In this document: piece after piece, positions 1,777-48,540 of the stretch | How the letters are laid out: the number at the start of each line of letters is the position of its first letter | Position numbering within the stretch: position 1 is the stretch's first letter | Origin: Schmidtea polychroa | Taxonomy: Eukaryota | Assembly (NCBI GenBank): GCA_044892525.1 | Contig: CM097885.1 | Coordinates: 20,462,001-20,526,000, forward strand | Direction of reading: 5' to 3' | Length of the DNA: 64,000 nt | The notes under the pieces: model-generated | Database searches by the model: none | What the model was told of the DNA's origin: nothing | Seen by the model: only the letters and a program-made list of their open reading frames with translations | Position numbers and translations under genes: made by a program

Positions 1777-2277
1777 TCAACTCGGCCGGTTGGTGGGGCC
1801 GGTTAGTCCCGTCGTAGACGTTTGCGACGAACCCGCTTGCCTTTCGTATTCAGCCAGTCTGGCCTTCTTTAATTTTTCACGGATGTTTCGCCCAAGCCGT
1901 TTTCTTTTGGGCTTATTTTTAGCGGCTGGGGGATATATGGTTGCGAGTTCAACGGCCAGTGGCCGTATTTGTCTTGCTGCGGATTCCTGCACAAACTGCT
2001 CATTTCGTTCGGTTTCGAGCACCCGCACCTGCACTTTCAGGGCGCGAATCTCCATTTGGTCATGAGCGGCCTGTGTCTGCAGCTGGAGGATCTGGGCGGT
2101 TTTCTTCTTCATGGCTTCGGGACTAAACCAGGTCCCTTCGAACTCTCGACATTTTCCCTTCAACTTGTCTACCCGGACCCGGAGTTCGTCAGCACGTTGT
2201 TGGGCCTGCTCCCGATCCTTCCGGAGATTTTCCATTAACTTGTACACTAAAACACAACAGTTGTCAGTTTCCTTCAT
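1777..2277 (-). CDS. Orphan coiled-coil protein with basic C-terminal region (probably a 3' exon)
   Basis: GC-rich 166-codon ORF in AT-rich surroundings; heptad-like E/K/Q/R/L stretch; KNKPKRKRLGR basic patch; TTTTAG acceptor-like site near 2250 on the minus strand. Confidence 0.55.
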   Translation of the reverse strand: MKETDNCCVLVYKLMENLRKDREQAQQRADELRVRVDKLKGKCREFEGTWFSPEAMKKKTAQILQLQTQAAHDQMEIRALKVQVRVLETERNEQFVQESAARQIRPLAVELATIYPPAAKNKPKRKRLGRNIREKLKKARLAEYERQAGSSQTSTTGLTGPTNRPS

Positions 2278-2470
2278 ATCGAATAAAATGAAAATGTTAA
2301 TTATTAATTAACATTAGCAATTCCCGGTTACGACCTTATTGCACTTATTCAATTTACTATATGAATTCTAAGACTCCAAAAAAGAAATTTCCTTTATTTA
2401 AATAATACACATTAGAAGATAGCGGTGCTATAGATATAATGACTAAAATAAGTTATTTATAGTCTAATAA

Positions 2471-2835
2471 TCACGCTCGGCGTTTGCGGGGCCTTCCTCT
2501 TTTTCTCGGGGGTACCGTGGCCTCCTCCAATTCTTCCAGGGGCACTCCCTCCCTTTCTGCCCGGATTTGCATCTCTATCTTCTTAAGCCGGATCTGAGCG
2601 GCTTCCACATCCCAGGCCGCTTGATCTCGGGCCTCCTGTAACCGGTTATTCTCCGGCTCCACCTTCACCCATACCGGGGCATCTACTTCGGGGCCCGTCC
2701 GGATTACTCGATCTGCGCAATCCAGGTCCCGTCCCTGACCCCACCGATGTATATGGTACCAGATGTACCGGGTCCGGAGTCGGGTGATCGTCTGCTGGTC
2801 AGTACTCTCGTCACTGCTAGAGCTGGATTGAGACA
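2471..2835 (-). CDS. Orphan protein with C-terminal AT-hook/NLS-like motif
   Basis: GC-rich ORF running MSQSSSSSDES...PPRKRGRPRKRRA*; RGRP is the AT-hook core; TTACAG acceptor-like site lies just upstream of this ATG. Confidence 0.55.
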
Positions 2836-4496
2836 TGTCTGTAACATAAACATTAAGACCCATACATAACCACTGTGACTTATAAATAGACGTCACAACA
2901 AAACATACAGAAATTTCTTGTTTAAAATCAATAATACTTAACTACTAAATTTATTATAATTAATATAAATACTTCTAACATACCCAAATTTTATTTAATT
3001 TATGGATATACTTTTTAATTAAGTAAATTAAGGAAAAATTTACTAAAGTTAAGTGTTAACGTTAAAAAATTCGTACCCGAACCGAGAATCTCCAAAAATG
3101 GTTTTGTTTAAAATTATTATTTTAATCATTCGGCATTTATTTACCACTGGTTGGTAATTTGGATTTTATAAGTTAAAATTTTTAGGTAAAAGTGAATATC
3201 TCCACTAAATGCGGTTACGCCAGGCGAAGGGTACTAGTGGCGAGCTCAGTCTCTTGCTCACTTACTCTTCCACTGGTTGTATTCGTTATAAGTGGGAAAA
3301 TCATCATTTATCCGTTTGTGGTAATCTATTTCTTGATCTTATATACCTAATTTAGGGACAATTTGATGATTATTTTTCCAGCTGGAGCTATCGAGGTTCA
3401 GTTTCAGCAGTTCGTCCTATGACTCTTGATCAGGAAATCATGGCTTGTATTCATAAAGATTGTGTGAGTTGATTGATTGAAAGGGAAAAATTAATATTGA
3501 ATCTTTATTTAGCTGCAATTGACGACTTGTAGCCTTGCACGAACATTGATTAACTTGTTTGTATTCTGTGCGCTTTCAATATTCTATTGTCGTTTCAATA
3601 TGAGATTTTTATTTGTCTAAATTTATTGCAATTGTCAAATTTTATTAGTCAGTTATTATTGTAAACAAATTTATTCGAACAAAGTAGTAATATTTAATGA
3701 ATTTATAAATGTGAGCAACCGTTAAACATGATAAATATACTTAAGTCGATGAATGAAAATACTATTACCATAATATCTGCATGTAATTTGCTTTTATATG
3801 AAGAAACCCAAATATTTGGTTGGTTTGTAATGTGGTTCTAATTTAGAAATTTTTCATCTAAGTCATTTGGTATTAATGAACATGAAGTAGTTATGGTTAA
3901 TATGCTTTTGCCTACTTTAATTGAATTTATAAAGAAGTTGTATGTTTGTTTTTCGTTCGGGATTTAAGGGTCAGATTGCATAGGTGCTCATACGTCCTCA
4001 CCCATATCCCCCGGTGACTTGAATAATGGTAATATTTTCCTATGGGGGGGTGTTGCTAAAAATAGTCTTCAGAATTCTGATCCCTCTGATTGGCTCGGAG
4101 GGTCGTTTCTAAATTTAATTTCTTGGGGAAATCCTAAAATCAATATCAGATTGGGATATTAACTTTGACAAGTAATAATAATTGTTAATAATAATAATAT
4201 ATAATCAGTATAGTATTTATACATTTACTAATATATTCCACCATGACTAAGTGTATATGTATATATATATATATATATATTTACAATTAAATTATATATA
4301 TTAAGAACAATATTAGTAAAAATAATAGTCAAGTCATATATAACTGATCATTAATAGTAATAATAGCAACAATAGAGATAACCATAATAACCATGGTAAC
4401 AATAATAATAATAATGTTAATGATAATAATAAGGGTCGAACTGATGATAATAATGATAATAAGATTAACATTAATAATAATAATAATAATATTACC

Positions 4497-4579
<83 letters not shown>

Positions 4580-6549
4580 AAATAATAATATAAATAATAT
4601 TAGTGATAATAAGAATAATGGTAATAATGATGGTAATATTAGCAGTAACAGCAATAATATTAGGGTTAATATAATTTTACATGGTACAATTCGAAGCTTA
4701 TATTTCTCATTTTAAAGATTTCTATTCTATGATTTAGAAAGTTACTTTTGGTAATTTATAAATTTCCGTTTCTAATTTAAATTTTATATTTTTCAATTTA
4801 CACATTTATACGTTATAATTTCTAATTGTATGTATTATAGTGTATAACTTAATAATTTATGATTTTATACTTTATATTTTATAATTTTATATTTTATAAT
4901 TTATAATTTTATGTTTTACAATTCAGGGGTTTAGATTTTATAATTTGTAGTTATATATTTCGTAGTTCATAATTTTATATTTAATAATTCACGATTTTAG
5001 GTTTTATACTTTAGGATTTTATATTTCATAATTTATGATTTTATAATTTATACTTTATGAATTTCTAGTCAGCTTTACATGACTTTTTATAAGTTACTTT
5101 TGTTGGATCATCATAGTTTTCTAAAATGTTTTCAAGTTTGTCGGTAGCTATTCCCAGACTCTATTCCCGAAGTTCCACGTTTATGTATAATTAATAAAGA
5201 AACATTTCCGATACCCAAAATCTATAGCTCCTAATCGGGATTTTCCATTAATGACTTACATCAATATAATTAGCTCTAAGATCTGACAACTATTTATACA
5301 ATTATAGCTAAATATTTATACATTAATGAATGTTTAAAGTGAGAATTGGATTTAAAATCCTTACATTTACTTTGAATCAGCATAGCTAGATTAAGTTGTA
5401 CCGGCACGTATGCCGAATATCTTTCTTATCTCTATTACTTTATCAAAATTTTCTATTACAAAATTTAGTTCGGCATATGTCCAAGTATAATTGAAATTAC
5501 TGTGATGAATCAACTAGCTACATTAATGTGAGTGCAGAATTGTGTAATTTTAGGTACGAGCTCTGCTCAAATTAGAACCTTAGTGTAGAGTTATTATTCA
5601 GGATTTTAAGTGTTGATTTTAAATATGTGTTGCATAGAAGGTCGGGAAGAATATTGCTTCCATGGCCCCACTGTGACCACTTCCACAAACCTTAGTGTTG
5701 AGTGTTGAGTCAACCATTTACGATCGACCTTACATAAATACAAAGAGTCAGGCGAAGGGTTTCCTCGACCTAACTCCATGGCAGGACCATGAAGTAGTTC
5801 GACCTCCGGCTGACCCGAACAAAAAGGGTTTTATAGATAATAATAATGCATGTGTGAATGAGAAATAGAATTTAAGAATTATATGCAGGACCGATCAGAG
5901 ACGTACTCGGACGCCGCTGATCCGTCGAAAATTACTAGAACATAAAATCTTAATAATATTCTTAATGAACAAAAGGTTGCTATTAATAATATTACGTAGC
6001 ATAAAATTACATCAAATCAAAAGGCTTACTAATAATTTTCCAGAAAATTCTTCAGCAAAATATTGGCATAAAGATTGATTGTGACTGAAACGTGTCAGTA
6101 TATATACCTATTTAGTAGATAGATAGGGCACCGCTAGATCAGGACTCCGCTGGATCACATACCCCCCCACTAAGGGAAATTTTTAAAATTCTTTTCAAGG
6201 TCAAAATTTTTAATGTAAAGTTCATTTTTTTTTTAAAATTTGAAATTCGAGAGTTCCTGACAAGAGATATTATTATTTGAAAATAAAGGTCTTTGAAACA
6301 CAGGGATTATTATATATATATAGTCTGAATTTATCCGACAAGATATTCTGTCCTCCTATGGGTATTGCTCACATTCAACATGTCGCAAGGGTATTATTAA
6401 ACAAATCAACATTGTATTTTTATTATTTTATTATTATTATTATTATTATTTTTTTTTTATTTTTTTTTTCTAATATTTTAATTTTTTTTTTATTTATTAT
6501 TTATTTATATTTTTATTTTTATTATTTATTTATATTTTTATTTTTATTA

Positions 6550-6616
<67 letters not shown>

Positions 6617-6677
6617 TTTAATATTATTATTATTTTTATTATTATTATTATTTTTATTATTATTATTATTTTATTAA

Positions 6678-6758
<81 letters not shown>

Positions 6759-6781
6759 TATTTATATTTTTATTTTTATTA

Positions 6782-6856
<75 letters not shown>

Positions 6857-6857
6857 T

Positions 6858-6924
<67 letters not shown>

Positions 6925-7095
6925 GATTTACAAAATTATTATTATTTTTCATAATAAATTAAGACATTAAAAGATATATTGAATCACAGATCAATTCGAA
7001 AACAATACGTCATCTATATCAATATCATTGGCATCATTGGCTTCATTGTCATCATCATTGAAATCTGGACTCATTCCGCTAAAAAGTGGACGAAT

Positions 7096-8625
7096 TTATG
7101 AAATTACTTGATCAACATCTGGAACATCGACTCCTAAATAATGTCCATATGCGAGACTGGTATTAGGACCCACCCAAAGGCGCTTGTCATCGTTGTTCGA
7201 CAAGGCTATTTTATTATTTTTAAAAGTAAAGAGCTGGTGGTTTCTTGTACCTATTCTAGTTTGTGGTACCGAAAATACTACGCTGTTGTTGTAGCAGTCT
7301 AAATATGACTGGTGTCTAATATCAGTATTACCAAGCTGAACTCCCTTTGCTTTTAAATGATCTTTATCCCCTAACAAACTATAACACTTAGGTCTTAAGA
7401 AAACCCATTCCTTATACCCTACACCTTTACTTTCATCTTTAAACTTCCCTATTACCGAATCCAGGCTCTTAGAATATAAAGGATGAGCAGGATCGTAATT
7501 TGACGTGTCTAGAAGGCTGTCTCTTATCATTGCCGGCAAAAGAGTGTCAAGCTTACAGGGCTTTATCTCTAAGAAAAAGGAGTCAGTGTCACCGGCAACG
7601 ATATTTATATCACAATTAAATTCAGACCTGTACTTGGCCAATTCCACATATTGTAGTTGATACATTCTTAGTTTAGACAAATCTAACATTGTTTGACAAA
7701 TATAGCTAGGCCTGTCTAAACATATAGAGTCCTTATTCAGATGAGCCACAATCAGATCATCAGCAATTTTGATAGATTTTCTGAAAGTTGGCTTTGATGC
7801 ATATACAATCATCTTTTCAGCTGAATTGCATAGCCTCAAATTCATCCTTTTCTTTAAGTTCTCAACGGATTTCCCATATAAGCTGTTGTTATAAAGCTTA
7901 AACAAATCTCTATATAACTCACTGGTGGATTGTGGTCTTAATGTTGTGTTTTTATCAATGTACGATTTAAAAATGGGTGCTTGCGTGAATTTAACTGCTC
8001 TATAAATTTTAACCACCGTCACACCGAGTGAAAGATAAAGTTTAAGAAGTCTCCAATGAAGAACATAGTTCTTCTTTGGCCAATGCGTGAGCAACAGCTT
8101 CTCAACTTTGGAGTTCGGTGGACACATCTTTTCCGCAGCAATAGGAAAGTCATTTAAAAAATCATGCAAACATTCCGGAATTTCGATATCAACTTCCATA
8201 GTATACCCATATGGAAGGTTATCAATATCATCATTCACACATTCAAGTAAAACATCATTCAAATCATCATACACCCATACAAAGTCAGCATAAGGCAGAT
8301 TTTGGCTTAAGGCCCAACCATACAAATTATTAATATCTATGTACAAGAGTTCAGTGTCTTCAGAACTAGCAACATAATGTTTGTTAACAAATGTTAACCC
8401 ACCCCGTATCCCTCCTTCATAGAAATTAAACATTTCCATGTCCTGCAAAAGTTCTATAGGTTCCGTTAATGTGATAAGCGCTGAGGCCCATGACATACCG
8501 GGAATACCATAGAAATTTAGAGGTTCAAGACCATTGTAAGCAATGGCCTTCGCACGGAATTGTTGAAAATAGTCTGCAAGGAGAAATACATCTAATTTAA
8601 GGTAAGTCAACATGTAATCTAACAT
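7096..8625 (-). CDS. Protein-primed family B DNA polymerase, C-terminal polymerase part (left copy)
   Basis: YLKLDV (ExoIII), YIDINNLYG (Pol A), KLYNNSLYGK (Pol B), AGDTDSFF (Pol C), GKFKDE, LRPKCY, KAKGV. Confidence 0.92.
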   Translation of the reverse strand: MLDYMLTYLKLDVFLLADYFQQFRAKAIAYNGLEPLNFYGIPGMSWASALITLTEPIELLQDMEMFNFYEGGIRGGLTFVNKHYVASSEDTELLYIDINNLYGWALSQNLPYADFVWVYDDLNDVLLECVNDDIDNLPYGYTMEVDIEIPECLHDFLNDFPIAAEKMCPPNSKVEKLLLTHWPKKNYVLHWRLLKLYLSLGVTVVKIYRAVKFTQAPIFKSYIDKNTTLRPQSTSELYRDLFKLYNNSLYGKSVENLKKRMNLRLCNSAEKMIVYASKPTFRKSIKIADDLIVAHLNKDSICLDRPSYICQTMLDLSKLRMYQLQYVELAKYRSEFNCDINIVAGDTDSFFLEIKPCKLDTLLPAMIRDSLLDTSNYDPAHPLYSKSLDSVIGKFKDESKGVGYKEWVFLRPKCYSLLGDKDHLKAKGVQLGNTDIRHQSYLDCYNNSVVFSVPQTRIGTRNHQLFTFKNNKIALSNNDDKRLWVGPNTSLAYGHYLGVDVPDVDQVIS

Positions 8626-8637
8626 GTTATTGCAATT

Positions 8638-10950
8638 TTACTGAGTCCAAATAACTTGGGCTAATGCATACTCATCATTAGACACAGAATCCCAGATCGG
8701 AGGTAGTTCAAGAGTTGATTCCAGAACCTCAAGAGATGTAGCGAAGTCATAAGGAAAGATACCTTTGGCTCGAACAATTGCGCCATCAAAAACAGAAGAA
8801 GTTAAAGGCAGATCGGAAAGAGTCTTAACCGCTTTTGCTAAAGATGAATTAACAAACTGCATGCTGTCAATAAAACGAACAGGTAATTTGTTAATATACG
8901 CGATGAGAGAGATGAATTTCTCGGTAGTGGTCGGAATAATATTTAACTCCCAAGAAGGAAAATTATTCAAGCCATACTTCAAAATATGATGGAGATCATA
9001 CCCCCTCAAATTATGGAACACAACCGGTAACTGTCTCTGAATTCGCCGAGAAACATTACATTTCCTACAAGCAGCACCAAGATACTTACCTGAGAAGTGG
9101 CAATGGTCCCTAACTCTATCTCTAATGAATTTTTTACACAGATAACAGGTTATGGAATCTCTATATGCCCGCTGTTGAACGAAAGACAAAGTTTGCATGG
9201 GCTTTTTCCCATTAATTTCGTAATATGGCAGGACAATTGTGGCAGCAATTTCCTCCACCTTACGCAAGAAAGACAACACACAATCATCACCAACAAACTC
9301 ATAATAAAATTTTGTGTTATTATAATTATTAATTAATAACATGCCTGCTGTTATTGGCAAGTGCTTTTGATGGTGTATTATATCCTCGGGTAAAATTGCC
9401 TCAAAATCGGCATATATCACGAATGACGGGGTGATTGTCTTCGCATAATTTTGAAAAATTAAATTTTTATCTTTAGGGAGGGTGTATAGAGGTGTTCCTA
9501 TCTGGTTTTTTATGCATAAGGCGACATGAATATCAAATGCATTTTTATGTCTAAAACCATTGAGACAATGGGGACGCCAGTTCACTCTAATCCAAAGGTT
9601 GCAGGAGCTACTGGGATGTGAGTTCATTAATTTTTGTAAGTTAAAAACTGCGGTATAATGGAAATTATCACCGTCTTCCAATAAAAGTAAGTATATGGGT
9701 TCACCACCTATAACCTTAGATCGGTGAATAATATCTAATTGAGGATGATGTGGAATATAATTATCGTCAATTACATTTTCATAAGGCTTACCTGGGGTCT
9801 TTTTATAAATTAAAACATTTATTGATAAATTTAAATCCTTGTTTTTCCTTTCAAATTTGGGGATATCACATAATTTCATGGGGCAATCATCTATGGGGTC
9901 AAAATTTAACTCGTCAAGATAATTTTCATAGGAACTAACACGATTTCTATTTATATGTACTACATTGCGTTTTAACAGTGCTAAAATACTATAGATAAAG
10001 CACATATCGTCGGTGTTTTTGACGTTTACTATTGCTTTTTTAGAATTTAAAGCTGATGGGGTGGGGATATAACTATGTCCAACTAGCATATTCATATGTG
10101 TATTTTTAGTTAATATAAAATCTATTTCTTTGATTTTAACCACCCGCCATCCGCTTCCCAAATATGTGAACTTTTCAATTTTATTATTTAATCTGGTGAT
10201 TCCATTAATCAAAAAATTTTCTGAAAAAACTTCTGCGCTATTAGAGAAAAAATTATCTCTAATTTCCCCATCTTTTTCGAATTGGATTAAAACGGTGAAT
10301 TGTATTTTAACTGTGCCCATACCTTTGATTTCGGCAATTAATTTATTTATAATTTTATTTGTAAGGGAAATTTGCACCAAGTTATCCTTTTCCATATTAA
10401 AGCGTAAATTTTTTCTCGCCCCCTTAAAATCTATCTCAATTTCAGGTTCATCGTCAATATCGATCGAACTCTTATTATTTACTGAACCACCTATTTGAAT
10501 ATTATTTAAATCACTTATTTGATCTATTTTAGTAATTTTAGAGGGAACACCAGACCAAAAACTAACAGCAGGCTGTTTATTATTTAGAATATTATTTATT
10601 TTAGTATTTAGATTAGTATTATTTACATTATTATTTACATGTTTTGTATTATTATTTATAGGTTTTGTATTTATGTGTTTTGTGGTATTATGTGTTGATT
10701 GTTGTATTTTAATAAACAATATCTTTTTATTTAAAGAGAACCGATTTAAATGTGATTTGTGAATATTATAAAACTCTATATATTTAATGCTTTGGGAAGT
10801 CTCGCATATTGGACATATAAAGTAGTTGATACCATAGAATCTATGACCGTAGTATTTTTTCATATTTTTATGGCATATATTTGTATGATCATTTGATGAC
10901 ATGCAGTAGCGTGGGTATAATTTACCTGATAAATTATAAATATATATCAA
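8638..10950 (-). CDS. Protein-primed family B DNA polymerase, N-terminal/exonuclease part (left copy); same frame as 7096..8625, separated by one TAA
   Basis: VIYADFEA (ExoI); CYLC...DHCHFSGKYLGAACRKCN (EndoVII-like Zn insert typical of Polinton pPolB); FHNLRGYD (ExoII); FIDS; KGIFPY. The track start is TTG, so the true start is uncertain. Confidence 0.88.
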   Translation of the reverse strand: MIYIYNLSGKLYPRYCMSSNDHTNICHKNMKKYYGHRFYGINYFICPICETSQSIKYIEFYNIHKSHLNRFSLNKKILFIKIQQSTHNTTKHINTKPINNNTKHVNNNVNNTNLNTKINNILNNKQPAVSFWSGVPSKITKIDQISDLNNIQIGGSVNNKSSIDIDDEPEIEIDFKGARKNLRFNMEKDNLVQISLTNKIINKLIAEIKGMGTVKIQFTVLIQFEKDGEIRDNFFSNSAEVFSENFLINGITRLNNKIEKFTYLGSGWRVVKIKEIDFILTKNTHMNMLVGHSYIPTPSALNSKKAIVNVKNTDDMCFIYSILALLKRNVVHINRNRVSSYENYLDELNFDPIDDCPMKLCDIPKFERKNKDLNLSINVLIYKKTPGKPYENVIDDNYIPHHPQLDIIHRSKVIGGEPIYLLLLEDGDNFHYTAVFNLQKLMNSHPSSSCNLWIRVNWRPHCLNGFRHKNAFDIHVALCIKNQIGTPLYTLPKDKNLIFQNYAKTITPSFVIYADFEAILPEDIIHHQKHLPITAGMLLINNYNNTKFYYEFVGDDCVLSFLRKVEEIAATIVLPYYEINGKKPMQTLSFVQQRAYRDSITCYLCKKFIRDRVRDHCHFSGKYLGAACRKCNVSRRIQRQLPVVFHNLRGYDLHHILKYGLNNFPSWELNIIPTTTEKFISLIAYINKLPVRFIDSMQFVNSSLAKAVKTLSDLPLTSSVFDGAIVRAKGIFPYDFATSLEVLESTLELPPIWDSVSNDEYALAQVIWTQ

Positions 10951-11099
10951 ATATATTAATAGATTTAAATATTAATTGTTAATTGCATTTATATTTAATG
11001 ACTTTATTAACAATTCTTAACCCGTAATTCTTAAGTGTAACCATGTATAGGCAGAATTCAATTCTCTAGAATATGGCGCAATTACCATTTCAGTTTGGT

Positions 11100-11702
11100 G
11101 CTTTGTGTGTAATGCACACATGTTTTTACAATAAATTTGTATTTTTTCGCGCGGTTAACGTTATTTTCTTGGATTTTTATTCATATAATATATAGATAAA
11201 ATTTAATTTTCTATAATTATAATTGGTTAAAAACTATGTATCTTGTTTTGTGTGTAATACACACATGGTTTTACAATAAATTTGTATTTTTCATACATTT
11301 AACGTAATTTTCATAGGCTTTTATACATATAATATATAGATAAAATTTAATTTTCTATAATTATAATTGGTTAAAAACTATGTATCTTGTTTTGTGTGTA
11401 ATACACACATGTTTTTACAATAAATTTGTAGTTTTCATACATTTAACGTAATTTTCTTGAAATTTTATTCATATAATATATAGATAAAATTTAATTTTCT
11501 ATAATTATAATTGGTTAAAAACTATGTATCTTGTTTTGTGTGTAATACACACATGGTTTTACAATAAATTTGTATTTTTCATACATTTAACGTAATTTTC
11601 ATAGGCTTTTATACATATAATATATAGATAAAATTTAATTTTCTATAAATATAATTGGTTAAAAACTATGTATCTTGTTTTGTGTATGATACACACATGT
11701 TT
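11100..11702. repeat. 144-bp tandem array (~4.2 copies), each with a TGTGTGTA-A-TACACACA palindrome or close variant
   Basis: ACTATGTATCTTG recurs at 11233, 11377, 11521 and 11665, an exact 144-bp period. Confidence 0.92.
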
Positions 11703-11754
11703 TCCTGATTTTTTTTTTAATATTAATATCATTTTTAATATTTTTTTTTTAAAT

Positions 11755-11788
<34 letters not shown>

Positions 11789-12052
11789 TTAATAATAAAA
11801 ATATTAATAATAATAATAATAATAATAATAAAATAATAATAATAATAATAATAATAATATAAATAATAATAATATAAATAATAATAATAAAAATAATAAA
11901 AATAATAATGATAAAAATAATATTAAAAATATTAATAATAATAATAAAATAATAATAATAATATAAATAATAAAAATAAAAATAATAATAATAATATTAA
12001 TAAAAATAATAAAAATAATTATAATAATAATAATATAAATAATAAAAATAAA

Positions 12053-12087
<35 letters not shown>

Positions 12088-12162
12088 TAATAATAACAGT
12101 AATAATAATAATTATAATAATAATAAAAAATAAAAATAATAAAAAAAAAATAAATAATAATG

Positions 12163-12193
<31 letters not shown>

Positions 12194-12582
12194 TAATATT
12201 AAAAATATTAATAATAATAAAATAATAATAATAATATAAAAAATAAAAATAATAAAAATAATAATAATAATAGTAATAGTAATAATAATTTGTAAATAAA
12301 ATAAGATTTTGAAGAAAACAATCATGAAAATATTGAAAATAATCATGAAATTAATGCAAATTATGAAAATTTTAAATAAATCAAATTTAGTGTCAAAATG
12401 TGTTTTTAAAATATATCTAAGTTTTAAAATACCGCAACGTAATGTATTTTTATTCTATCCCTTCTTTGATTTTGATTGGACCGGAAAATATTCATTTTCT
12501 TTATAAGCAGTTGAAATTTTCAAAATCGTCACAATTATTTTTAAATTTTACAAATTTTCGACTAAAAAATTTTTGATTAAAA

Positions 12583-13077
12583 ATGGACATTGAATTAGAT
12601 AATATTTTACGCGCCATGTTGGCTGGAGAAAACGGTAAATTATTTTATTTTTATTATTATTATTATTTATTATTTTAGAGAATTTATGGTATGAAGTCAC
12701 CGAGGCCGACAACTATAATCAAGATCAGCCAATTATTATTAGTGAGGATGAAGAAGATATTTTATTAAGTAAATTTATTTTTAAAATTTAATTGAAAATA
12801 AAATTATTTAGTTGATCAGCCTATTAATGACGGTGAAAATGTTATTGAAGACAATACCCGAGATATTATCATGGAATCAATGGGTAAATTTATTTTATTT
12901 AATTAATGAATTACATAAACTTAAGGTGATGATACCTCAAATGTTGGATATGCCCCAAATATTAATGTAGTTTTTGATGACTATGCCCACATGTTTATTG
13001 AGGAGGAAATTAATCATGACTTTGTTTTTTATGGGGATGAATCTGAAGATGATTCCGATATAGAATCAAAATGTTAG
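12583..13077 (+). CDS. Four-exon gene for a very acidic 121-aa protein (exons 12583-12634, 12679-12768, 12812-12883, 12926-13077)
   Basis: Three GTAAAT...AG introns of 44, 43 and 42 nt, all phase 1. Splicing gives an uninterrupted 366-nt frame MDIELDNILRAMLAGENENLWYEVTEAD...GDESEDDSDIESKC*. Confidence 0.78.
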
Positions 13078-13142
13078 TTATATTTTATTAATATTTTTAA
13101 AATTAATTTAAAATTGGTTTTGATAATTAATTTGTTTAATAA

Positions 13143-13620
13143 CCACGTATAAATTATGAAAATGTTTCTGGAAATAATTATGAAAATGCTGAAAATTATG
13201 AAAATGTTCCTGAAATTATAATGAAAATGTTGAAAATTATGAAAAATATGAAAGTTTTTCTGAAAATAATTATGAAAATGTTGAAAATATTGAAAATTAT
13301 GATTACCACGTATAAATTATGAAAATGTCTCTGAAAATAATTATGAAAAATCAGAAATATATGAAGATGTTCCTGAAATTATAATGAAAATGTTGAAAAT
13401 TATGAAAAATATGAAATTTTTTTTGTGAAAATAATTATGAAAATATTGAAAATAATGAAATGTTCCAGAAACTTATGAAAATGTTTTTGAAAATAATTAT
13501 GAAAAATCTGAAAATCATGAAAATGTCTCTGAAAATAATTATGAAAAATCTGAAAATTATGACAAATATGAATATGTTCCTGAAAATGATGTTGAAATTA
13601 ATAAGTTGTTATGAAAATAA
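13143..13620 (+). repeat. Degenerate AATTATGAAAATG(TT) short-unit array
   Basis: Many AATTATGAAAA variants; CCACGTATAAATTATGAAAATGT recurs at 13143 and 13306. Confidence 0.8.
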
Positions 13621-13729
13621 TAATTGAATAGAAATAATACTTTGAAAATATTAATTGTCAAACATAGTTTGCATTGAGCACGCAACTACTTTCTCTAATA
13701 ATAATATTAAAAAAAAATAGTAATATTAG

Positions 13730-13769
<40 letters not shown>

Positions 13770-13959
13770 TATAATAATATTTATGATATCTCCCATATTT
13801 TATACCTCTGATAATGATAATATTACAATAAATTATATATGTATTCCGATTATTATTCCGTTTTATAATTATTATGCGATAAATACGGCTTAAGAATTGT
13901 TAATAAAGTCATTAAATATAAATGCAATTAACAATTAATATTTAAATCTATTAATATAT

Positions 13960-16272
13960 TTGATATATATTTATAATTTATCAGGTAAATTATACCCACG
14001 CTACTGCATGTCATCAAATGATCATACAAATATATGCCATAAAAATATGAAAAAATACTACGGTCATAGATTCTATGGTATCAACTACTTTATATGTCCA
14101 ATATGCGAGACTTCCCAAAGCATTAAATATATAGAGTTTTATAATATTCACAAATCACATTTAAATCGGTTCTCTTTAAATAAAAAGATATTGTTTATTA
14201 AAATACAACAATCAACACATAATACCACAAAACACATAAATACAAAACCTATAAATAATAATACAAAACATGTAAATAATAATGTAAATAATACTAATCT
14301 AAATACTAAAATAAATAATATTCTAAATAATAAACAGCCTGCTGTTAGTTTTTGGTCTGGTGTTCCCTCTAAAATTACTAAAATAGATCAAATAAGTGAT
14401 TTAAATAATATTCAAATAGGTGGTTCAGTAAATAATAAGAGTTCGATCGATATTGACGATGAACCTGAAATTGAGATAGATTTTAAGGGGGCGAGAAAAA
14501 ATTTACGCTTTAATATGGAAAAGGATAACTTGGTGCAAATTTCCCTTACAAATAAAATTATAAATAAATTAATTGCCGAAATCAAAGGTATGGGCACAGT
14601 TAAAATACAATTCACCGTTTTAATCCAATTCGAAAAAGATGGGGAAATTAGAGATAATTTTTTCTCTAATAGCGCAGAAGTTTTTTCAGAAAATTTTTTG
14701 ATTAATGGAATCACCAGATTAAATAATAAAATTGAAAAGTTCACATATTTGGGAAGCGGATGGCGGGTGGTTAAAATCAAAGAAATAGATTTTATATTAA
14801 CTAAAAATACACATATGAATATGCTAGTTGGACATAGTTATATCCCCACCCCATCAGCTTTAAATTCTAAAAAAGCAATAGTAAACGTCAAAAACACCGA
14901 CGATATGTGCTTTATCTATAGTATTTTAGCACTGTTAAAACGCAATGTAGTACATATAAATAGAAATCGTGTTAGTTCCTATGAAAATTATCTTGACGAG
15001 TTAAATTTTGACCCCATAGATGATTGCCCCATGAAATTATGTGATATCCCCAAATTTGAAAGGAAAAACAAGGATTTAAATTTATCAATAAATGTTTTAA
15101 TTTATAAAAAGACCCCAGGTAAGCCTTATGAAAATGTAATTGACGATAATTATATTCCACATCATCCTCAATTAGATATTATTCACCGATCTAAGGTTAT
15201 AGGTGGTGAACCCATATACTTACTTTTATTGGAAGACGGTGATAATTTCCATTATACCGCAGTTTTTAACTTACAAAAATTAATGAACTCACATCCCAGT
15301 AGCTCCTGCAACCTTTGGATTAGAGTGAACTGGCGTCCCCATTGTCTCAATGGTTTTAGACATAAAAATGCATTTGATATTCATGTCGCCTTATGCATAA
15401 AAAACCAGATAGGAACACCTCTATACACCCTCCCTAAAGATAAAAATTTAATTTTTCAAAATTATGCGAAGACAATCACCCCGTCATTCGTGATATATGC
15501 CGATTTTGAGGCAATTTTACCCGAGGATATAATACACCATCAAAAGCACTTGCCAATAACAGCAGGCATGTTATTAATTAATAATTATAATAACACAAAA
15601 TTTTATTATGAGTTTGTTGGTGATGATTGTGTGTTGTCTTTCTTGCGTAAGGTGGAGGAAATTGCTGCCACAATTGTCCTGCCATATTACGAAATTAATG
15701 GGAAAAAGCCCATGCAAACTTTGTCTTTCGTTCAACAGCGGGCATATAGAGATTCCATAACCTGTTATCTGTGTAAAAAATTCATTAGAGATAGAGTTAG
15801 GGACCATTGCCACTTCTCAGGTAAGTATCTTGGTGCTGCTTGTAGGAAATGTAATGTTTCTCGGCGAATTCAGAGACAGTTACCGGTTGTGTTCCATAAT
15901 TTGAGGGGGTATGATCTCCATCATATTTTGAAGTATGGCTTGAATAATTTTCCTTCTTGGGAGTTAAATATTATTCCGACCACTACCGAGAAATTCATCT
16001 CTCTCATCGCGTATATTAACAAATTACCTGTTCGTTTTATTGACAGCATGCAGTTTGTTAATTCATCTTTAGCAAAAGCGGTTAAGACTCTTTCCGATCT
16101 GCCTTTAACTTCTTCTGTTTTTGATGGCGCAATTGTTCGAGCCAAAGGTATCTTTCCTTATGACTTCGCTACATCTCTTGAGGTTCTGGAATCAACTCTT
16201 GAACTACCTCCGATCTGGGATTCTGTGTCTAATGATGAGTATGCATTAGCCCAAGTTATTTGGACTCAGTAA
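13960..16272 (+). CDS. Protein-primed family B DNA polymerase, N-terminal/exonuclease part (right copy)
   Basis: Translation identical to 8638..10950; ends at an in-frame TAA at 16270-16272. Confidence 0.88.
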   Translation: MIYIYNLSGKLYPRYCMSSNDHTNICHKNMKKYYGHRFYGINYFICPICETSQSIKYIEFYNIHKSHLNRFSLNKKILFIKIQQSTHNTTKHINTKPINNNTKHVNNNVNNTNLNTKINNILNNKQPAVSFWSGVPSKITKIDQISDLNNIQIGGSVNNKSSIDIDDEPEIEIDFKGARKNLRFNMEKDNLVQISLTNKIINKLIAEIKGMGTVKIQFTVLIQFEKDGEIRDNFFSNSAEVFSENFLINGITRLNNKIEKFTYLGSGWRVVKIKEIDFILTKNTHMNMLVGHSYIPTPSALNSKKAIVNVKNTDDMCFIYSILALLKRNVVHINRNRVSSYENYLDELNFDPIDDCPMKLCDIPKFERKNKDLNLSINVLIYKKTPGKPYENVIDDNYIPHHPQLDIIHRSKVIGGEPIYLLLLEDGDNFHYTAVFNLQKLMNSHPSSSCNLWIRVNWRPHCLNGFRHKNAFDIHVALCIKNQIGTPLYTLPKDKNLIFQNYAKTITPSFVIYADFEAILPEDIIHHQKHLPITAGMLLINNYNNTKFYYEFVGDDCVLSFLRKVEEIAATIVLPYYEINGKKPMQTLSFVQQRAYRDSITCYLCKKFIRDRVRDHCHFSGKYLGAACRKCNVSRRIQRQLPVVFHNLRGYDLHHILKYGLNNFPSWELNIIPTTTEKFISLIAYINKLPVRFIDSMQFVNSSLAKAVKTLSDLPLTSSVFDGAIVRAKGIFPYDFATSLEVLESTLELPPIWDSVSNDEYALAQVIWTQ

Positions 16273-16284
16273 AATTGCAATAAC

Positions 16285-17814
16285 ATGTTAGATTACATGT
16301 TGACTTACCTTAAATTAGATGTATTTCTCCTTGCAGACTATTTTCAACAATTCCGTGCGAAGGCCATTGCTTACAATGGTCTTGAACCTCTAAATTTCTA
16401 TGGTATTCCCGGTATGTCATGGGCCTCAGCGCTTATCACATTAACGGAACCTATAGAACTTTTGCAGGACATGGAAATGTTTAATTTCTATGAAGGAGGG
16501 ATACGGGGTGGGTTAACATTTGTTAACAAACATTATGTTGCTAGTTCTGAAGACACTGAACTCTTGTACATAGATATTAATAATTTGTATGGTTGGGCCT
16601 TAAGCCAAAATCTGCCTTATGCTGACTTTGTATGGGTGTATGATGATTTGAATGATGTTTTACTTGAATGTGTGAATGATGATATTGATAACCTTCCATA
16701 TGGGTATACTATGGAAGTTGATATCGAAATTCCGGAATGTTTGCATGATTTTTTAAATGACTTTCCTATTGCTGCGGAAAAGATGTGTCCACCGAACTCC
16801 AAAGTTGAGAAGCTGTTGCTCACGCATTGGCCAAAGAAGAACTATGTTCTTCATTGGAGACTTCTTAAACTTTATCTTTCACTCGGTGTGACGGTGGTTA
16901 AAATTTATAGAGCAGTTAAATTCACGCAAGCACCCATTTTTAAATCGTACATTGATAAAAACACAACATTAAGACCACAATCCACCAGTGAGTTATATAG
17001 AGATTTGTTTAAGCTTTATAACAACAGCTTATATGGGAAATCCGTTGAGAACTTAAAGAAAAGGATGAATTTGAGGCTATGCAATTCAGCTGAAAAGATG
17101 ATTGTATATGCATCAAAGCCAACTTTCAGAAAATCTATCAAAATTGCTGATGATCTGATTGTGGCTCATCTGAATAAGGACTCTATATGTTTAGACAGGC
17201 CTAGCTATATTTGTCAAACAATGTTAGATTTGTCTAAACTAAGAATGTATCAACTACAATATGTGGAATTGGCCAAGTACAGGTCTGAATTTAATTGTGA
17301 TATAAATATCGTTGCCGGTGACACTGACTCCTTTTTCTTAGAGATAAAGCCCTGTAAGCTTGACACTCTTTTGCCGGCAATGATAAGAGACAGCCTTCTA
17401 GACACGTCAAATTACGATCCTGCTCATCCTTTATATTCTAAGAGCCTGGATTCGGTAATAGGGAAGTTTAAAGATGAAAGTAAAGGTGTAGGGTATAAGG
17501 AATGGGTTTTCTTAAGACCTAAGTGTTATAGTTTGTTAGGGGATAAAGATCATTTAAAAGCAAAGGGAGTTCAGCTTGGTAATACTGATATTAGACACCA
17601 GTCATATTTAGACTGCTACAACAACAGCGTAGTATTTTCGGTACCACAAACTAGAATAGGTACAAGAAACCACCAGCTCTTTATTTTTAAAAATAATAAA
17701 ATAGCCTTGTCGAACAACGATGACAAGCGCCTTTGGGTGGGTCCTAATACCAGTCTCGCATATGGACATTATTTAGGAGTCAATGTTCCAGATGTTGATC
17801 AAGTAATTTCATAA
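16285..17814 (+). CDS. Protein-primed family B DNA polymerase, C-terminal polymerase part (right copy)
   Basis: Same motifs as the left copy; two amino-acid differences near the C-terminus (QLFIFK vs QLFTFK, GVNVP vs GVDVP). Confidence 0.92.
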   Translation: MLDYMLTYLKLDVFLLADYFQQFRAKAIAYNGLEPLNFYGIPGMSWASALITLTEPIELLQDMEMFNFYEGGIRGGLTFVNKHYVASSEDTELLYIDINNLYGWALSQNLPYADFVWVYDDLNDVLLECVNDDIDNLPYGYTMEVDIEIPECLHDFLNDFPIAAEKMCPPNSKVEKLLLTHWPKKNYVLHWRLLKLYLSLGVTVVKIYRAVKFTQAPIFKSYIDKNTTLRPQSTSELYRDLFKLYNNSLYGKSVENLKKRMNLRLCNSAEKMIVYASKPTFRKSIKIADDLIVAHLNKDSICLDRPSYICQTMLDLSKLRMYQLQYVELAKYRSEFNCDINIVAGDTDSFFLEIKPCKLDTLLPAMIRDSLLDTSNYDPAHPLYSKSLDSVIGKFKDESKGVGYKEWVFLRPKCYSLLGDKDHLKAKGVQLGNTDIRHQSYLDCYNNSVVFSVPQTRIGTRNHQLFIFKNNKIALSNNDDKRLWVGPNTSLAYGHYLGVNVPDVDQVIS

Positions 17815-18008
17815 ATTCGTCCACTTTTTAGCGGAATGAGTCCAGATTTCAATGATGATGACAATGAAGCCAATGATGCCAATGATATTGATATAGATGA
17901 CGTATTGTTATCGAATTGATCTGTGATTCAATATATCTTTTAATGTCTTAATTTATTATGAAAACTAATAATAATTTTGTAAATCTTAATAATAATAATA
18001 ATAATGAA

Positions 18009-18078
<70 letters not shown>

Positions 18079-18151
18079 TAATAAAAATAAAAATATAAAT
18101 AAATAATAAATAAATAAATTAAAATATTAGAAAAAAAAATAATAATAATAA

Positions 18152-18188
<37 letters not shown>

Positions 18189-18195
18189 TTAATAA

Positions 18196-18232
<37 letters not shown>

Positions 18233-18328
18233 TAATAAAAATAAAAATATAAATAAATAATAAAAATAAAAATATAAATAAATAATAAATAAAAAAAAAA
18301 TTAAAATATTAGAAAAAAAAAATAAAAA

Positions 18329-18362
<34 letters not shown>

Positions 18363-19613
18363 TAATAAAAATACAATGTTGATTTGTTTAATAATACCCT
18401 TGCGACATGTTGAATGTGACCAGTACCCTTGTGAGCAATACCCATAGGATTACAGAATATCTTGTCGGATACATTCAGACTATATATATATATATATATA
18501 TATAATAATCCCTGTGTTTCAAAGACCTTTATTTTCAAATAATAATATCTCTTGTCAGGAACTCTCGAATTTCAAATTTTAAAAAAAAATGAACTTTACA
18601 TTAAAAATTTTGACCTTGAAAAGAATTTTAAAAATTTCCCCTAGGGGGGTGAGTGGGGGTATGTGATCCAGCGGAGTCCTGATCTAGCGGTGCCCTATCT
18701 ATCTACTCCATTTAGTACACGTGTATGTATTGATGCATTAAAACAAACTCGAATTCTTTTTATTCCAGAATTTTCTATTTTGCGATTTTGATATTTTTAA
18801 TGGCAATTTTTGTGCCATAATTTTTGTTTTTATTTTTATATTTTTATTTTTTAATGATTTTTCGTTAAATTGACGTCCATGATGGATTTGTAACGGTTCC
18901 AGAACATTCTATTTTACTTTTAATTAATTTTTATTCTAACTGGTGTTTTTATGAATTTCTTTTTAAGATTTTTTATTTTTAATACTAATTTATTTATTTT
19001 CCCTAACTTTTGTTGTTCTAGATGACTTTTGTGATGGTCATCGCCATTTTTATAGAATGTTCTGGGTTTTTCTGGCATGTTTTACTGTTTTTATCGTTTT
19101 TTAAGTTACTCGAGTTTGTTTTTTGTAACTCTGTGTTTATTTGGTTATTTCCGAGTTCTATTTTGCATAATTTTATTTAATTTCTGTGTTTATTATTTGT
19201 TGTTTTCTCCTTTAATTACTATTGTTTATTTGGTGTAGTTTTGATATATTTAGTTATACTTCTTGCTTTTTGCATGCTGTGTACTTACACATTTCAGTCA
19301 CAATTAGAAATTTTGGGTCTAGAAGTCAGTTCTAGCCCAACACAAGTTGCACTATTTTTAATAGCAAACTGCACTATATTTTTTCCAAACATTACTTTAT
19401 TATTTAATGAGCACTATATTATTTTTTTTACTAAAATAATTCAAATCAAAACTTTTTATATTCAAAAATTTACTTTAGCACCTAGATAATTATTGATCTG
19501 AACTAAATAATTTTGAACCTGAACTAAAATTTTTTTGACTGAAACTCAGATAGCAAGAGCATCATGTCATGTTAATTTTTGCATAAGTCAGTGTTTTCGC
19601 GGCTTTTCTTTAA

Positions 19614-40895: not shown

Positions 40896-41170
40896 TTATA
40901 ATTTTTGGCTTTTTATTATTATTATTATTATTATTATTTAAAACAACAAAAATGAAAATATTTTCGACTATAAGATAGTCCTTGTCAATCTCCTGGAATT
41001 TAGCAATGTTCTTCCCGAAAATACCTTTCAATCTTTCTTTTATTCCTTTCTCTTAATTCTCATTGGTTCTAAATATTATTCGTTATTTTTTTATTTATTA
41101 AAAATTTTAAAAATTTTATTGCAAATTAAAATTAAAATGAAATAAAATAAATACCATAAAAAATTTCAAA

Positions 41171-41608
41171 ATGACAAAAAATAAAAATTTGTTCACAATG
41201 AAAAACTGTCATACACCGAATGATATGTGCTTTAGAAAAAACATATTCTATTGCGTCACGTGCAATGTATGCAATGAAATCTACATTGGAATTACACTCA
41301 GGACCTTGCACCAAAGAGTTGAAGAACACCTGGATCCTGATGGAACATCCTCGTTGGGCAGAAATCTCCGGCAGTGTCAGCCAACAGAGGAAAGAAAAAT
41401 TATTTCAATCGAAAATTTCATGGAAACTAATGGAAACATCCGAAAGAAAAATGTCAGAATCAAAGAAGCAATTCTCATCATAAGCAGACAGCTAACGATC
41501 TACACTAAAGAAGAAATCAATGAAAATATTTCAAAATATTTTAAAATAAAGCCTCCAATAACGATTTATATACGCTATTTAAATATTTCAATAAATGTGT
41601 CAATTTGA
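41171..41608 (+). CDS. GIY-YIG endonuclease, Penelope-like
   Basis: KNIFYCVTCNVCNEIYIGITLRTLHQRVEEH...IKEAILI...TKEE. Confidence 0.8.
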   Translation: MTKNKNLFTMKNCHTPNDMCFRKNIFYCVTCNVCNEIYIGITLRTLHQRVEEHLDPDGTSSLGRNLRQCQPTEERKIISIENFMETNGNIRKKNVRIKEAILIISRQLTIYTKEEINENISKYFKIKPPITIYIRYLNISINVSI

Positions 41609-42037
41609 TTTTTAAATCCTATCTTTTGAAAGTATATTTCCTAAAATTTTCTATATTATTTTAATTATTACTTTTTAATTTATTTTATTTTTTTATTAAT
41701 TTCTTTATATATTGTCAGTTATTCTCAAGGTCAATGACAACATGTCAAATTCACGATTTCATTGATTTCTTCTTTAGTGTTGATCTTTAGCTGTCTGTTT
41801 ATGATGAGTACGAGGAAGTTTTATGATGAAGAAATTTTTAAATTTTAAATTTTAAAAATTAAATTTTAGATTAATTTAAAAAAAAATAAGAAGATATTTT
41901 AATTAAAAATATCTTCGTAGAAAATTTGTTTAAATAAGAAAGTTTTAAGAAGATATAATTTGATACTGATATTTACTGAAATAAAATTTATGGAAGCAAA
42001 AATTGATTTTAATGTTTTACAGGATGAACATCCTAAT

Positions 42038-43084
42038 ATGGTGGCAGCGGTAAGCACTGATGCAATCACCGAAAGATTGCTACCAAAGGTATTCTGCCAA
42101 GGTGACGACTTGTAAAAGTTCATTAAAAGATGCGAAATTTATTTCGACGCCAAGGGAATCACGCAGAAGAAAGATCAGGAAAGATTAACATCTTGCATGA
42201 TTGATGAGGATCTCCTGGAAGTGTATGCCAAAACACTGAAAAAAGCCGAAGGATTTCAGGCTAGGTTGCGATTGGCATTCGATCGCGAAAGAGATGTTTT
42301 AAAGGATCTACAAAACTTGTTGAATTACAAGCGGAAGGGTGAAGAAATAGAAACGTATTTTAAAAAGGTGGAGGACCTTGTTGATAGGTTGTTTGAAAAT
42401 AAAGAATTTACCAAAGAGAAATTAACAGCAAGGATGTTAATAGTATGTGCGGAGAATAAAGAAGTTGAGAAAGAAGTGATACTACGGAAGATAAAAAGCA
42501 CAGAAGAAATAAAGGAAACACTAATTCTGATGGACAAAGTAGACAAGCAAAGAGATCAGATAAACAGTATGAAAAGTTACGCCAGAGTGGTCTATCAGGA
42601 ACCACAGAGAAGAGTACAATACAAGAAGAAAGAAAAGAGAGAAGAAAGTATCCGAAGAGAAATGCCAGAATGCTGGTTATGCCACAAAATAGGACACACG
42701 AAAATTGATTGTCCAATAAAAGGTAAAATAGAATGCTGGACATGTCATAGAAGCGGACATATAAGTAGAAACTGTCCAGATAAAAAAAAGCTCCAAGATG
42801 TTTTGGGTGTGGGAAAGAAGGTCATATAAGAAGATTGTGTCAGGAAATACGTTGTGAAAGATGTAGCAGAAATGGTCATATATCCGAGGAGTGTTATACA
42901 AAGATGAGGTACGGGAGAGCGATGGAGAGACAAAGATTCACGGGAAACAGATACAGTCGGATAAATGGTATCGAGGAAGAAGAAGAAAGGGAATCGTGTG
43001 TAGAGACAAATGAAGATAATTTTCGGAAGACGTACCCAAACAACAGGGCTCCCCAGTAGAGGAGTTGGTTGGAGCCATATTCTA
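42038..43084 (+). pseudogene. gag: gag of the outer element (CCHC knuckles; stops and frameshifts)
   Basis: CWLCHKIGHTKIDC, CWTCHRSGHISRNC, CERCSRNGHISEEC; in-frame TAA at 42113-42115. Confidence 0.9.
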
Positions 43085-44821
43085 ACAGAAAATTTGATGG
43101 GATATCCTCAAGGGGCAGAAAAGTGGGAGAATGTTGGAATGGTAAGCGAGAAAGTATACAGGTTCCTAAAGAGAGAAATTTTTGAAGAGGAAGTGGAAAG
43201 AATTGGAACCATTGAAACGCAGCAGGTTGTTGAAATTTTGTATACCAAATTGCAAGGAAGGACTAGTATAACAGTAAGGATGAATGGGGAAAATTTCGAC
43301 TGTTTATTAGACACTGGTGCAAGAATCAATGTAATGAGTGTGAACTGTTTTAACAAGCTACGAGGACAACAATTGACGAAAAGTGACGATAAGTTACGAT
43401 GCGCAAACGAGAGTACGATCGAGACAATAGGAAAAACGAAGGTGCAAGTAACCATTGGAAATGTTTCGAAGGAAGTTATATTCATTGTGGCAGAGAAAGT
43501 GACACCAAATGTGATTGGAGGAAGCGAATTACAAGAAACATTTGGATTTAGACTGTTAAAAATTAAAGATATCGAGGCTAGTGAAAAAGACAAGAACTAT
43601 ATTTGTAACATTGAAGCAAAATTTAGCAGAAAAATAAAGGATGAAGAACGATTGATACGAGCGTTGGAACAGTTAAAGATCAATGAAGATAGCAAATTAA
43701 AGGAAATTATAACAAACAGTGGAAACGTGTTTATGGCAGATAAATGGGATGTGGGTCGCACACATTTGGTAAAACACAAGATAGTTACAAGAGATGAGTC
43801 GATAAACATAAAACCATATCGCCAACCACTAAATTTGGAATCAAAGATTGAAGAAGCATTACAAAATTTGTAAGAAAATGGAATTATACGGAAATGTAAC
43901 TCTCCGTGGAATACACCGCTAATATGTGTATGGAAAAAAGAGAAAAAGGATATTAGACTATGCTTGGTAACAGAGAGGCAGGCATTTCCAATGCCAAACA
44001 TAGACGAGATGTTGGATTTGTTAGGAGGATCCGTCTTTTTCAGCTCAATCGATCTAAGTAATGCATATTACCAATTGGAACTAGAAGAAGAATCACAGGA
44101 GAAAATAGCTTTCTCAACGAAGAACGGACAATATTGTTTCAACAGAATGCTGTTTGGAATTGCAGCAGCACCAGGTACGTTCCAAGAAATGATGACAAAA
44201 GTATTAGGCAAATAAAGGGAGCAATGGTGTATTTGGACGACATCTTGATTTATTCAAGCAGTAACGAGAAACACTATACAATACTCGCAGAAGTGTTAAA
44301 GTCGATTGAGGAAGCAGGCCTAAGGATTAATCCAGAAAAATGCCAAATAATAAAGGAAGAAATCAGATTCTTAGGACACATAATCAGCAAAGAAGGAGTA
44401 CAGACAGATCCATCTAAAATTCAGGCCATACAGAACTTTGGGAAGCCTAATTGCATAAAGAAACTCCGAAGTTTTTTAGGTATTTGCAATTATTATAGAA
44501 GATTCATCAGTGATTATGCAAAGAAGGCAAGGAAGTTAAAACAATTATGTAGCGGACCAAGTAACAAAAAATTAGAATGGAGTGAAGGAACGAATAGCGT
44601 GTTTGAGGGATTGAAATTAGCACTCACGACGGCGCCAATCTTATGTTTTCCGGATCTGAAAAAGGAGTTCATTTTAGATACCAACGCTAGTTTCGATACC
44701 ATTGGAGCAGTACTTTCACAAAGAGATAAAGATGGAAAGGAAAGAGTAATTGCGTATGGATCACACTCGATGACGAGCCACGAGAAAGGATATTGCATTA
44801 CAAGAAAGGAACTATTGGCGG
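43035..44821 (+). pseudogene. pol: pol 5' part of the outer element (protease, RT, RNase H start)
   Basis: LLDTGA, YLDD, LRSFLGICNYYR, RKELLA; broken by stops, frameshifts and the nested insertion. Confidence 0.92.
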
Positions 44822-45157
44822 TGTTAGCCGCAACAACGTCGAATTCATTCTCAATCTCCATAATTAATAAATTAAACAAATAAAATTACTAAATTTATTT
44901 TATTCACAAAACTGCGCTTTTTTGTAATATTCAAACAATCTGTTCGAGGCTTTTTTTATTATTTTAATTTTGATACTGATTTCAATGCTGGTTTAATTTA
45001 TTTTAATATTTAATATATTTTAATTTATTTTTATATTTTAAACTTACTTTAATTTATTAATTTAAATATTTATATAAAAATTTATGTAATCTGATATATA
45101 CAATTTAAATGTTTATTAGCAATATCCAGTTTTAACTTAAACGTGAATTCTACCCTT

Positions 45158-46909: not shown

Positions 46910-46924
46910 GAAACTCCTTAAATT

Positions 46925-48475: not shown

Positions 48476-48540
48476 ATTATTTAATTTATAAAAATTATTT
48501 ACATTATTATAACCAGCATTTTCATCAAAATCAAAATTAC

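Follow-up and report, generated by a model that had tools for sequence, protein, structure and literature searches.

Positions 12583–13077 of the window (the whole 64-kb stretch of DNA that was analysed) raise the question of whether a short, strongly acidic frame that opens only when three very small introns are removed is a gene, and, if it is, to which genome it belongs and what its product might do. The initial annotation had proposed three 42–44-nt GTAAAT..AG introns, all in phase 1, and a 121-aa frame, and recomputation reproduced this model exactly. The frame runs from the ATG at 12583 to the TAG at 13075–13077 once introns of 44, 43 and 42 nt, each beginning with GTAAAT and ending in TAG, TAG and AAG respectively, are spliced out. 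The parts of the gene are as follows.

12583–12634, plus strand: exon 1 (52 nt), with the ATG and an LxxIL-type stretch; the least disordered part by score
12635–12678, plus strand: intron 1 (44 nt), phase 1; a sequence model, masked as repeat (12637–12679) in the read comparison
12679–12768, plus strand: exon 2 (90 nt), with the first DQPI; some copies have a 3-nt in-frame deletion
12769–12811, plus strand: intron 2 (43 nt), phase 1; skipped exactly in one contig of run X6
12812–12883, plus strand: exon 3 (72 nt), with the second DQPI
12884–12925, plus strand: intron 3 (42 nt), phase 1; a 42-nt skip in one contig of run X6
12926–13077, plus strand: exon 4 (152 nt), with the stop codon and an acidic tail carrying CK2-type sites

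The gene had been described as invisible to the ORF track, and indeed no ORF of at least 100 aa spans it; retention of intron 3 would give a predicted 78-aa product. In the chance test, introns were defined by a GTAA[AG]T donor, a length of 38–50 nt and a [TCA]AG acceptor, with exons of at least 20 nt. Under these fixed rules the acidic gene is the sole multi-intron model in the 64 kb. Locally shuffled windows yielded a two-intron model in 24/100 cases and a three-intron model in 0/100, so the GT..AG introns open the frame beyond chance, as in a spliceosomal gene; the latter figure is optimistic because the intron rules were picked after the locus had been seen. The G+C content is 124/366 (34%) in the exons vs 10/129 (8%) in the introns (p 9e-10), and G in the exons is concentrated at the first codon position (52, 10 and 15 at positions 1, 2 and 3). 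The repeated DQPI motif was found again at residues 33 and 49, and the DNA sequence shared by the two copies, together with the symmetric phase-1 exons, suggests exon duplication. It is thus very probable, at roughly 0.9, that the locus is a genuine gene of four exons belonging to a multi-copy Polinton (Maverick) family.

Four of 12 sequencing runs, none of the 12 being on record as RNA, were compared: X1 and X2, which are DNA-type, X6, which is RNA-type by guess, and X5, which covers about 12418–12452 only. One X6 contig (depth 9.3) joins 12768 to 12812, which is the removal of intron 2 at its GT..AG ends. Another (depth 4.5) joins 12886 to 12929, a 42-nt skip at intron 3 that is placed 3 nt rightward because intron 3 and exon 4 start alike. 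Both joints are absent from X1 (3665 contigs) and X2 (781 contigs), which cover the introns; unspliced contigs are also present in X6. Up to about 12% of the letters (16 in 130) differ between X6 contigs and the window copy, and splicing is therefore shown for the family and not for this locus. Of the junctions that had been put forward for checking by reads, 12768/12812 and 12883/12926 were thus recovered from X6, in one contig each and from related copies, in one run of one study whose RNA status is guessed. The host spliceosome splices the gene, at introns 2 and 3 in related copies and, by the model, presumably at intron 1. Polinton genes are mostly identified by plain ORF scans and described as intronless; RNA-type joints at two of three mini-introns mean that splicing occurs in genes of this family, part of whose gene content escapes such scans.

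The gene lies within the 2851-nt core of an element with the following layout (a dot denotes no strand).

6108–6113, dot: left 6-bp target-site duplication, one mismatch vs the right copy (5/6 identical)
6114–18707, dot: foldback Polinton/Maverick derivative, 12,594 bp, termini AGTAGA...TCTACT
6793–11029, minus strand: left inverted arm; pPolB at 7096–10971, in-frame TAA at 8638–8640
11102–11703, dot: 144-bp tandem repeat, 4.2 copies
11752–12289, dot: (AAT)n tract
12416–12444, plus strand: upstream motif whose summed depth is several times that of the flanks; candidate enhancer
12502–12508, plus strand: TATAAGC box, 81 nt before the ATG; TATAAAC in 32% (X1) or 75% (X2) of depth
13142–13587, dot: 163-bp tandem repeat, 2.8 copies, between the acidic gene and pPolB
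13881–18117, plus strand: right inverted arm; pPolB at 13939–17814, in-frame TAA at 16270–16272, candidate phase-1 acceptor at 13984
18708–18713, dot: right 6-bp target-site duplication

The Polinton setting assumed earlier was borne out. A protein-primed PolB is present, with a PF03175 match (E 6.5e-16) on its C-terminal half and a weak match to PF02945 (endonuclease VII), both copies being broken by stops. The ends are AGT-type terminal inverted repeats (TIRs) with a 6-bp target-site duplication (TSD; 5/6), as in the reference features given in PMC8097293. The acidic gene ends about 860 nt upstream of the right pPolB ORF and on the same strand. Between 6114 and 18707 there is no long ORF for the integrase, capsid, ATPase or protease of an autonomous Polinton and no TBP gene, and Rfam gave 0 matches over 6000–18800. 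The element is a non-autonomous foldback derivative in which this copy of the acidic gene rides passively. Contigs of X1 fall at 99% identity or above (672), at 95–99% (931), at 90–95% (1554) and below 90% (508); thousands of contigs at mixed identity indicate many diverged copies, summed read depth being no measure of copy number.

The two arms, about 4.9 kb each with the outer part of the TIR, share the same pPolB stop and differ at 6/4099 positions outside the AAT tract, which would fit either recent copy-back formation or homogenisation of the arms. On the right side only, a candidate first exon for pPolB at 13783–13840 accompanies the phase-1 acceptor at 13984, which suggests that the right arm retains parental upstream context. 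Past the stop of pPolB, a short acidic frame in register with it occupies 17815–17922 (plus strand) and the mirror position in the left arm; it could be a small ORF or a former tail. GAAAAT-rich repeats at 13142–13587 and 12305–12375 translate piecewise, with frame changes, into Glu/Asn/Tyr-rich peptides and are either a minisatellite or a decayed coding repeat.

Vertebrate Maverick genes are reported to be intronless, with TIRs of 46–1447 bp (PMC8097293), whereas the arms in the window are about 4.9 kb long and contain pPolB. Gene-containing TIRs are described in butterfly polintons (10.1101/2025.02.07.637071), introners in dinoflagellate Polinton-like elements (PMC11957031) and intron-bearing cargo genes in nematode Mavericks (10.1101/2022.07.12.499685). 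The window gene resembles such accessory or cargo genes (nematode wasp/krma and vertebrate accessory regions) in being non-core and intron-bearing, within an element with TIRs and a 6-bp TSD. It differs from Maverick cargo in that it has no enzyme fold or host homologue, is probably native to the element and resides in a non-autonomous foldback derivative. It is best described as an orphan spliced Polinton accessory gene; intron-bearing Maverick cargo is already published, and the function proposed here is a putative one.

Relatives of the pPolB are many, with up to 68% identity, and an alignment scan gave 54 loci. Single-sequence scans of viral and metagenome contigs with pPolB, and an alignment scan of viral contigs, gave no matches. 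The most informative relative, L004 (14 kb; P0176–P0179), is a near-complete element whose pPolB is 56% identical to that of the window. Its Pfam matches are an rve integrase, an A32 ATPase, TBP and a ubiquitin-conjugating enzyme, and its putative capsid and exonuclease, which have no Pfam match, are labelled by size and position. Two other L004 ORFs are of skewed charge, one acidic (142 aa, 29% Asp/Glu) and one basic (65 aa, 42% Lys/Arg); the family of the acidic one is represented by only four hits among 94 candidates.

TATAAAC stands 35–48 nt ahead of 8/16 L004 ORFs, with two more at 80 and 99 nt. The boxed ORFs include the acidic and basic ORFs, pPolB, the packaging ATPase and the putative capsid, and not TBP. 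The motif occurs 13 times in L004 vs 6.4 expected, a count reached by 3/300 shuffles. In L017 it precedes 2/3 ORFs. In L006 it precedes 2/11 ORFs and is not enriched (9 vs 5.3 expected; 36/300 shuffles), and the acidic ORF of L006 has no TATAAAC within 130 nt. The window copy has TATAAGC, farther from the ATG (81 nt) than the main L004 boxes; the chance of such a 7-mer within 100 nt is about 0.02.

The L004 acidic ORF resembles the window gene in its about 30% Asp/Glu, few basic residues, upstream TATAAAC box and related pPolB. It differs in being intronless and next to TBP, and the two proteins are not alignable (389/1000 shuffles score as high; 150/500 with a profile). By sequence, it would be an analogue only. 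At L004:11333–12209 (minus strand) this ORF ends 4 nt ahead of TBP, its stop codon lying one base before the TBP start codon, and no TATAAAC box belongs to TBP itself, which suggests coupled translation from one transcript. A complex prediction for the L004 acidic protein and the L004 TBP gave no answer (score 0.01 vs a mark of 0.34). The ubiquitin-conjugating enzyme of L004 (PF00179, E 1.7e-12) lies at L004:13480–13974 (plus strand), and its TATAAAC box is at −80. In the window element, the motif at 12416–12444 shows 'go back' joints in X1 and X2, which suggest tandem copies in other elements, and is the sole part covered by X5.

The window gene probably belongs natively to the element, as an accessory gene, and was not recently captured from host DNA, because it lies upstream of pPolB, on the same strand and behind a TATAA(G/A)C box of the kind that marks core genes in the relative. 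The contrary view, which takes the gene for a captured piece of a host gene or for a decaying passenger without function that owes its splicing solely to retained host signals, is distinctly unlikely. Nematode Maverick regions with introns have been read as host-derived cargo (10.1101/2022.07.12.499685), the introns resemble other 41–47-nt GTAAAT intron candidates in the window, and both the variant spectrum and the intactness of the gene, described below, are what a passenger would display. Against this stand the Polinton-type box, the acidic ORF in a relative, the frame-preserving pattern of indels and the lack of a cellular homologue in searches with exon 4.

Variation between copies was examined in 40 of 69 variant rows, of which 25 lie within exons. 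Within these 25, 21 are non-synonymous, four are synonymous and none is a stop; the neutral expectation is 74–82% non-synonymous (synonymous share 18–26%), and the rows examined thus give no sign that amino acids are under purifying selection. In X1, rows at 90% or above comprise seven non-synonymous and four synonymous changes, and rows below 90% are non-synonymous in 14/14 cases (P 0.02–0.06, for a post hoc split), a weak lead towards diversification. Charge is unchanged in 15 of the 21 non-synonymous rows, with negative charge lost in three and gained in three. The scattered aromatics noted earlier are present in this copy, but all four Phe codons read otherwise, mostly as Ser, in 80–100% of X1 depth. 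Seven indels are listed: six are of one base and lie outside the coding exons, and the single exonic one is of 3 nt (P 0.026 if uniform, inflated because one-base indels favour homopolymer-rich non-coding DNA anyway). The frame-keeping indels weakly support constraint on the frame. The absence of variant rows in codons 1–33 was set aside as evidence, since the masked intron adjoins these codons and 29 rows lay outside those examined.

The pPolB has one lesion in 3830 nt, at which rate the probability that 366 nt of coding sequence stay intact by chance is about 0.91; the intactness of the acidic gene therefore says nothing on its retention. That it is the only intact-looking gene of the element is true and uninformative, and the argument that it was therefore retained by selection was rejected. 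The proposal that it is kept as cargo is likewise unsupported, intactness being expected by chance and 21/25 exon rows being non-synonymous, within the neutral range.

The acidity of the product was counted correctly by the initial annotation: among 121 residues, 36 are Asp/Glu (19 Asp and 17 Glu) and three are Lys/Arg (one Lys and two Arg). The protein has a mass of 14 kDa, a net charge of about −33 and a pI of about 4. Its charge-hydropathy (FoldIndex-type) score is −0.21 overall and negative in 9–10/11 windows, residues 1–21 being marginally positive and 71–101 near zero; by this prediction it is a highly acidic disordered chain, as a polyanionic chaperone would be. AlphaFold2 of exon 4 alone, from a single sequence, gave a pLDDT of 54.7 and no secondary structure. 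Five CK2-type sites are present, as expected in any acidic protein containing Ser/Thr. A motif scan of the protein found no LXCXE, CR1, CXXC, PIP box or basic run that could serve as a nuclear signal.

Remote homologues were sought with exon 4 alone and local ones with the whole spliced model. Exon 4 (50 aa) gave five candidates, none of which scored, and a best Atlas value of 0.88, below the 0.9 lead level. Its one match among 1.84 billion (E 1.2e-4) was an acidic repeat in a 3245-aa protein and was rejected. Pfam had nothing for exons 2, 3 and 4. The comparison of the spliced protein with other Polinton copies that had been recommended found no homologue at the 54 loci of the pPolB scan (best E 0.48), and 120 pPolB homologues gave a best E of 0.61. 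Literature searches turned up no paper on a Polinton TBP or on an acidic Polinton protein that is spliced, and one supplement of PMC8502044 has no hit for TBP, TATA or planarian names; the figure maps of PMC8502044 and bioRxiv supplements could still name such an ORF.

As to function, it is possible, at somewhat less than even odds, that the product is a mostly disordered polyanion chaperoning basic DNA-binding proteins. It would act by charge and not by a fold, as a chaperone or decoy resembling prothymosin or a nucleoplasmin tail. Candidate partners would be host histones or the small Lys/Arg-rich protein of the element, with the effect that the replicating or packaging genome is kept accessible. 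Among the roles put forward by the initial annotation, this comes nearest to the histone chaperone, which is the favoured one. This fits best because the gene encodes a sequence-tolerant, charge-balanced, disordered polyanion that appears co-regulated with a basic protein and packaging genes. Prothymosin-alpha, which is likened to the protein by its size and charge, and the acidic tails of nucleoplasmin and Nap1 are analogous in being highly acidic, disordered, small or regional and charge-driven in binding. The window protein differs in having no sequence similarity to them, more Ile/Asn/aromatics and no basic nuclear signal, and in being encoded by a mobile element. Histone chaperones have acidic disordered regions that are themselves described as DNA charge mimics (PMC10987829). 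If the protein serves the element's promoter or packaging, it offers a small, testable handle on the expression of integrated Polintons.

An alternative role is that of an E1A-like acidic co-activator or co-factor of the element's own TBP, which would have no DNA-binding domain and would tune the TATAAAC-box programme. The gene occupies the slot upstream of PolB that is given for 'Oncoid' genes, and shares CK2 acceptor motifs with the small ORF of the adintoviruses (Starrett et al. 2021, PMC8502044), but the window protein has no LXCXE, CR1 or paired CXXC. Its acids are interspersed with hydrophobics, and under a rule requiring 39-aa tiles to lie above the Kotha-Staller boundary for acid plus WFYL (PMC10550315), 6/83 tiles pass, or three without counting Phe. 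However, 648/1000 shuffles of the protein pass as well and the L004 acidic protein passes in 0/104 tiles, so the acidic transactivator proposed earlier agrees with the rule no better than a shuffled protein does. The abutment of acidic ORF and boxless TBP in L004 speaks for such a role and the lack of a TBP gene in the foldback element against it; on balance it is unlikely. A DNA mimic, also proposed earlier, would in a folded form of the Ocr, Ugi or phi29 p56 kind block a host DNA-binding enzyme, e.g. uracil-DNA glycosylase, during strand-displacement replication. The p56 protein protects protein-primed replication intermediates, and the 14/14 non-synonymous rows below 90% frequency are what an arms race might give. 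The composition is near that of Ocr (36 acidic and three basic of 121 vs 34 and six of 116; PMC3439906), but the likeness ends with length and charge bias. Ocr is a stably folded dimer, whereas the window protein is predicted to be unfolded, varies freely between copies, does not keep in most copies the four Phe that might form a core and, in searches with single exons, shows no similarity to known mimics. This makes a folded mimic very improbable.

The first three exons could also, or mainly, be a shared leader spliced alternatively to pPolB, as in adenovirus E2B, with exon 4 as one of two outlets. The pPolB frame opens at the candidate phase-1 acceptor at 13984, to which exon 3 could be joined in frame, and the box at 12502 is the only TATAA(G/A)C upstream of the right pPolB. 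Nevertheless, X6 shows exon 3 joined to exon 4, and the protein is unlike the 120 pPolB homologues. In addition, three relatives start pPolB only three residues earlier with Cys at the junction, where the exon-3 join would give Gly and the local candidate exon at 13783–13840 would give Cys. A shared leader is accordingly a very unlikely explanation.

A broader reading goes beyond the polyanion chaperone proposed above and is itself doubtful: that Polintons of a TBP-encoding lineage, as a rule, express from their own TATAAAC-box programme a disordered acidic protein that evolves fast and would partner TBP or a basic core protein. Host-type phase-1 mini-introns would have been gained, growth would have occurred by exon duplication, and diversification would proceed under conflict with the host. 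If true, animal Polintons would possess a regulatory or packaging module that relies on the splicing of the host and is so far undescribed.

Elsewhere in the window, two G+C-rich frames at 1777–2941 (minus strand), one of them coiled-coil-like and both basic towards the C-terminus, have no firm Pfam match and might together form a spliced gene that belongs to a different repeat. The region 40951–51989 holds gag-pol frames of the Ty3/gypsy type, nested and in both orientations, inside 534-nt inverted repeats, with a GIY-YIG fragment at 41141–41608. At 55892–56398 on the minus strand lies a host exon that matches ANF_receptor weakly (E 2e-5, under the curated cut-off).
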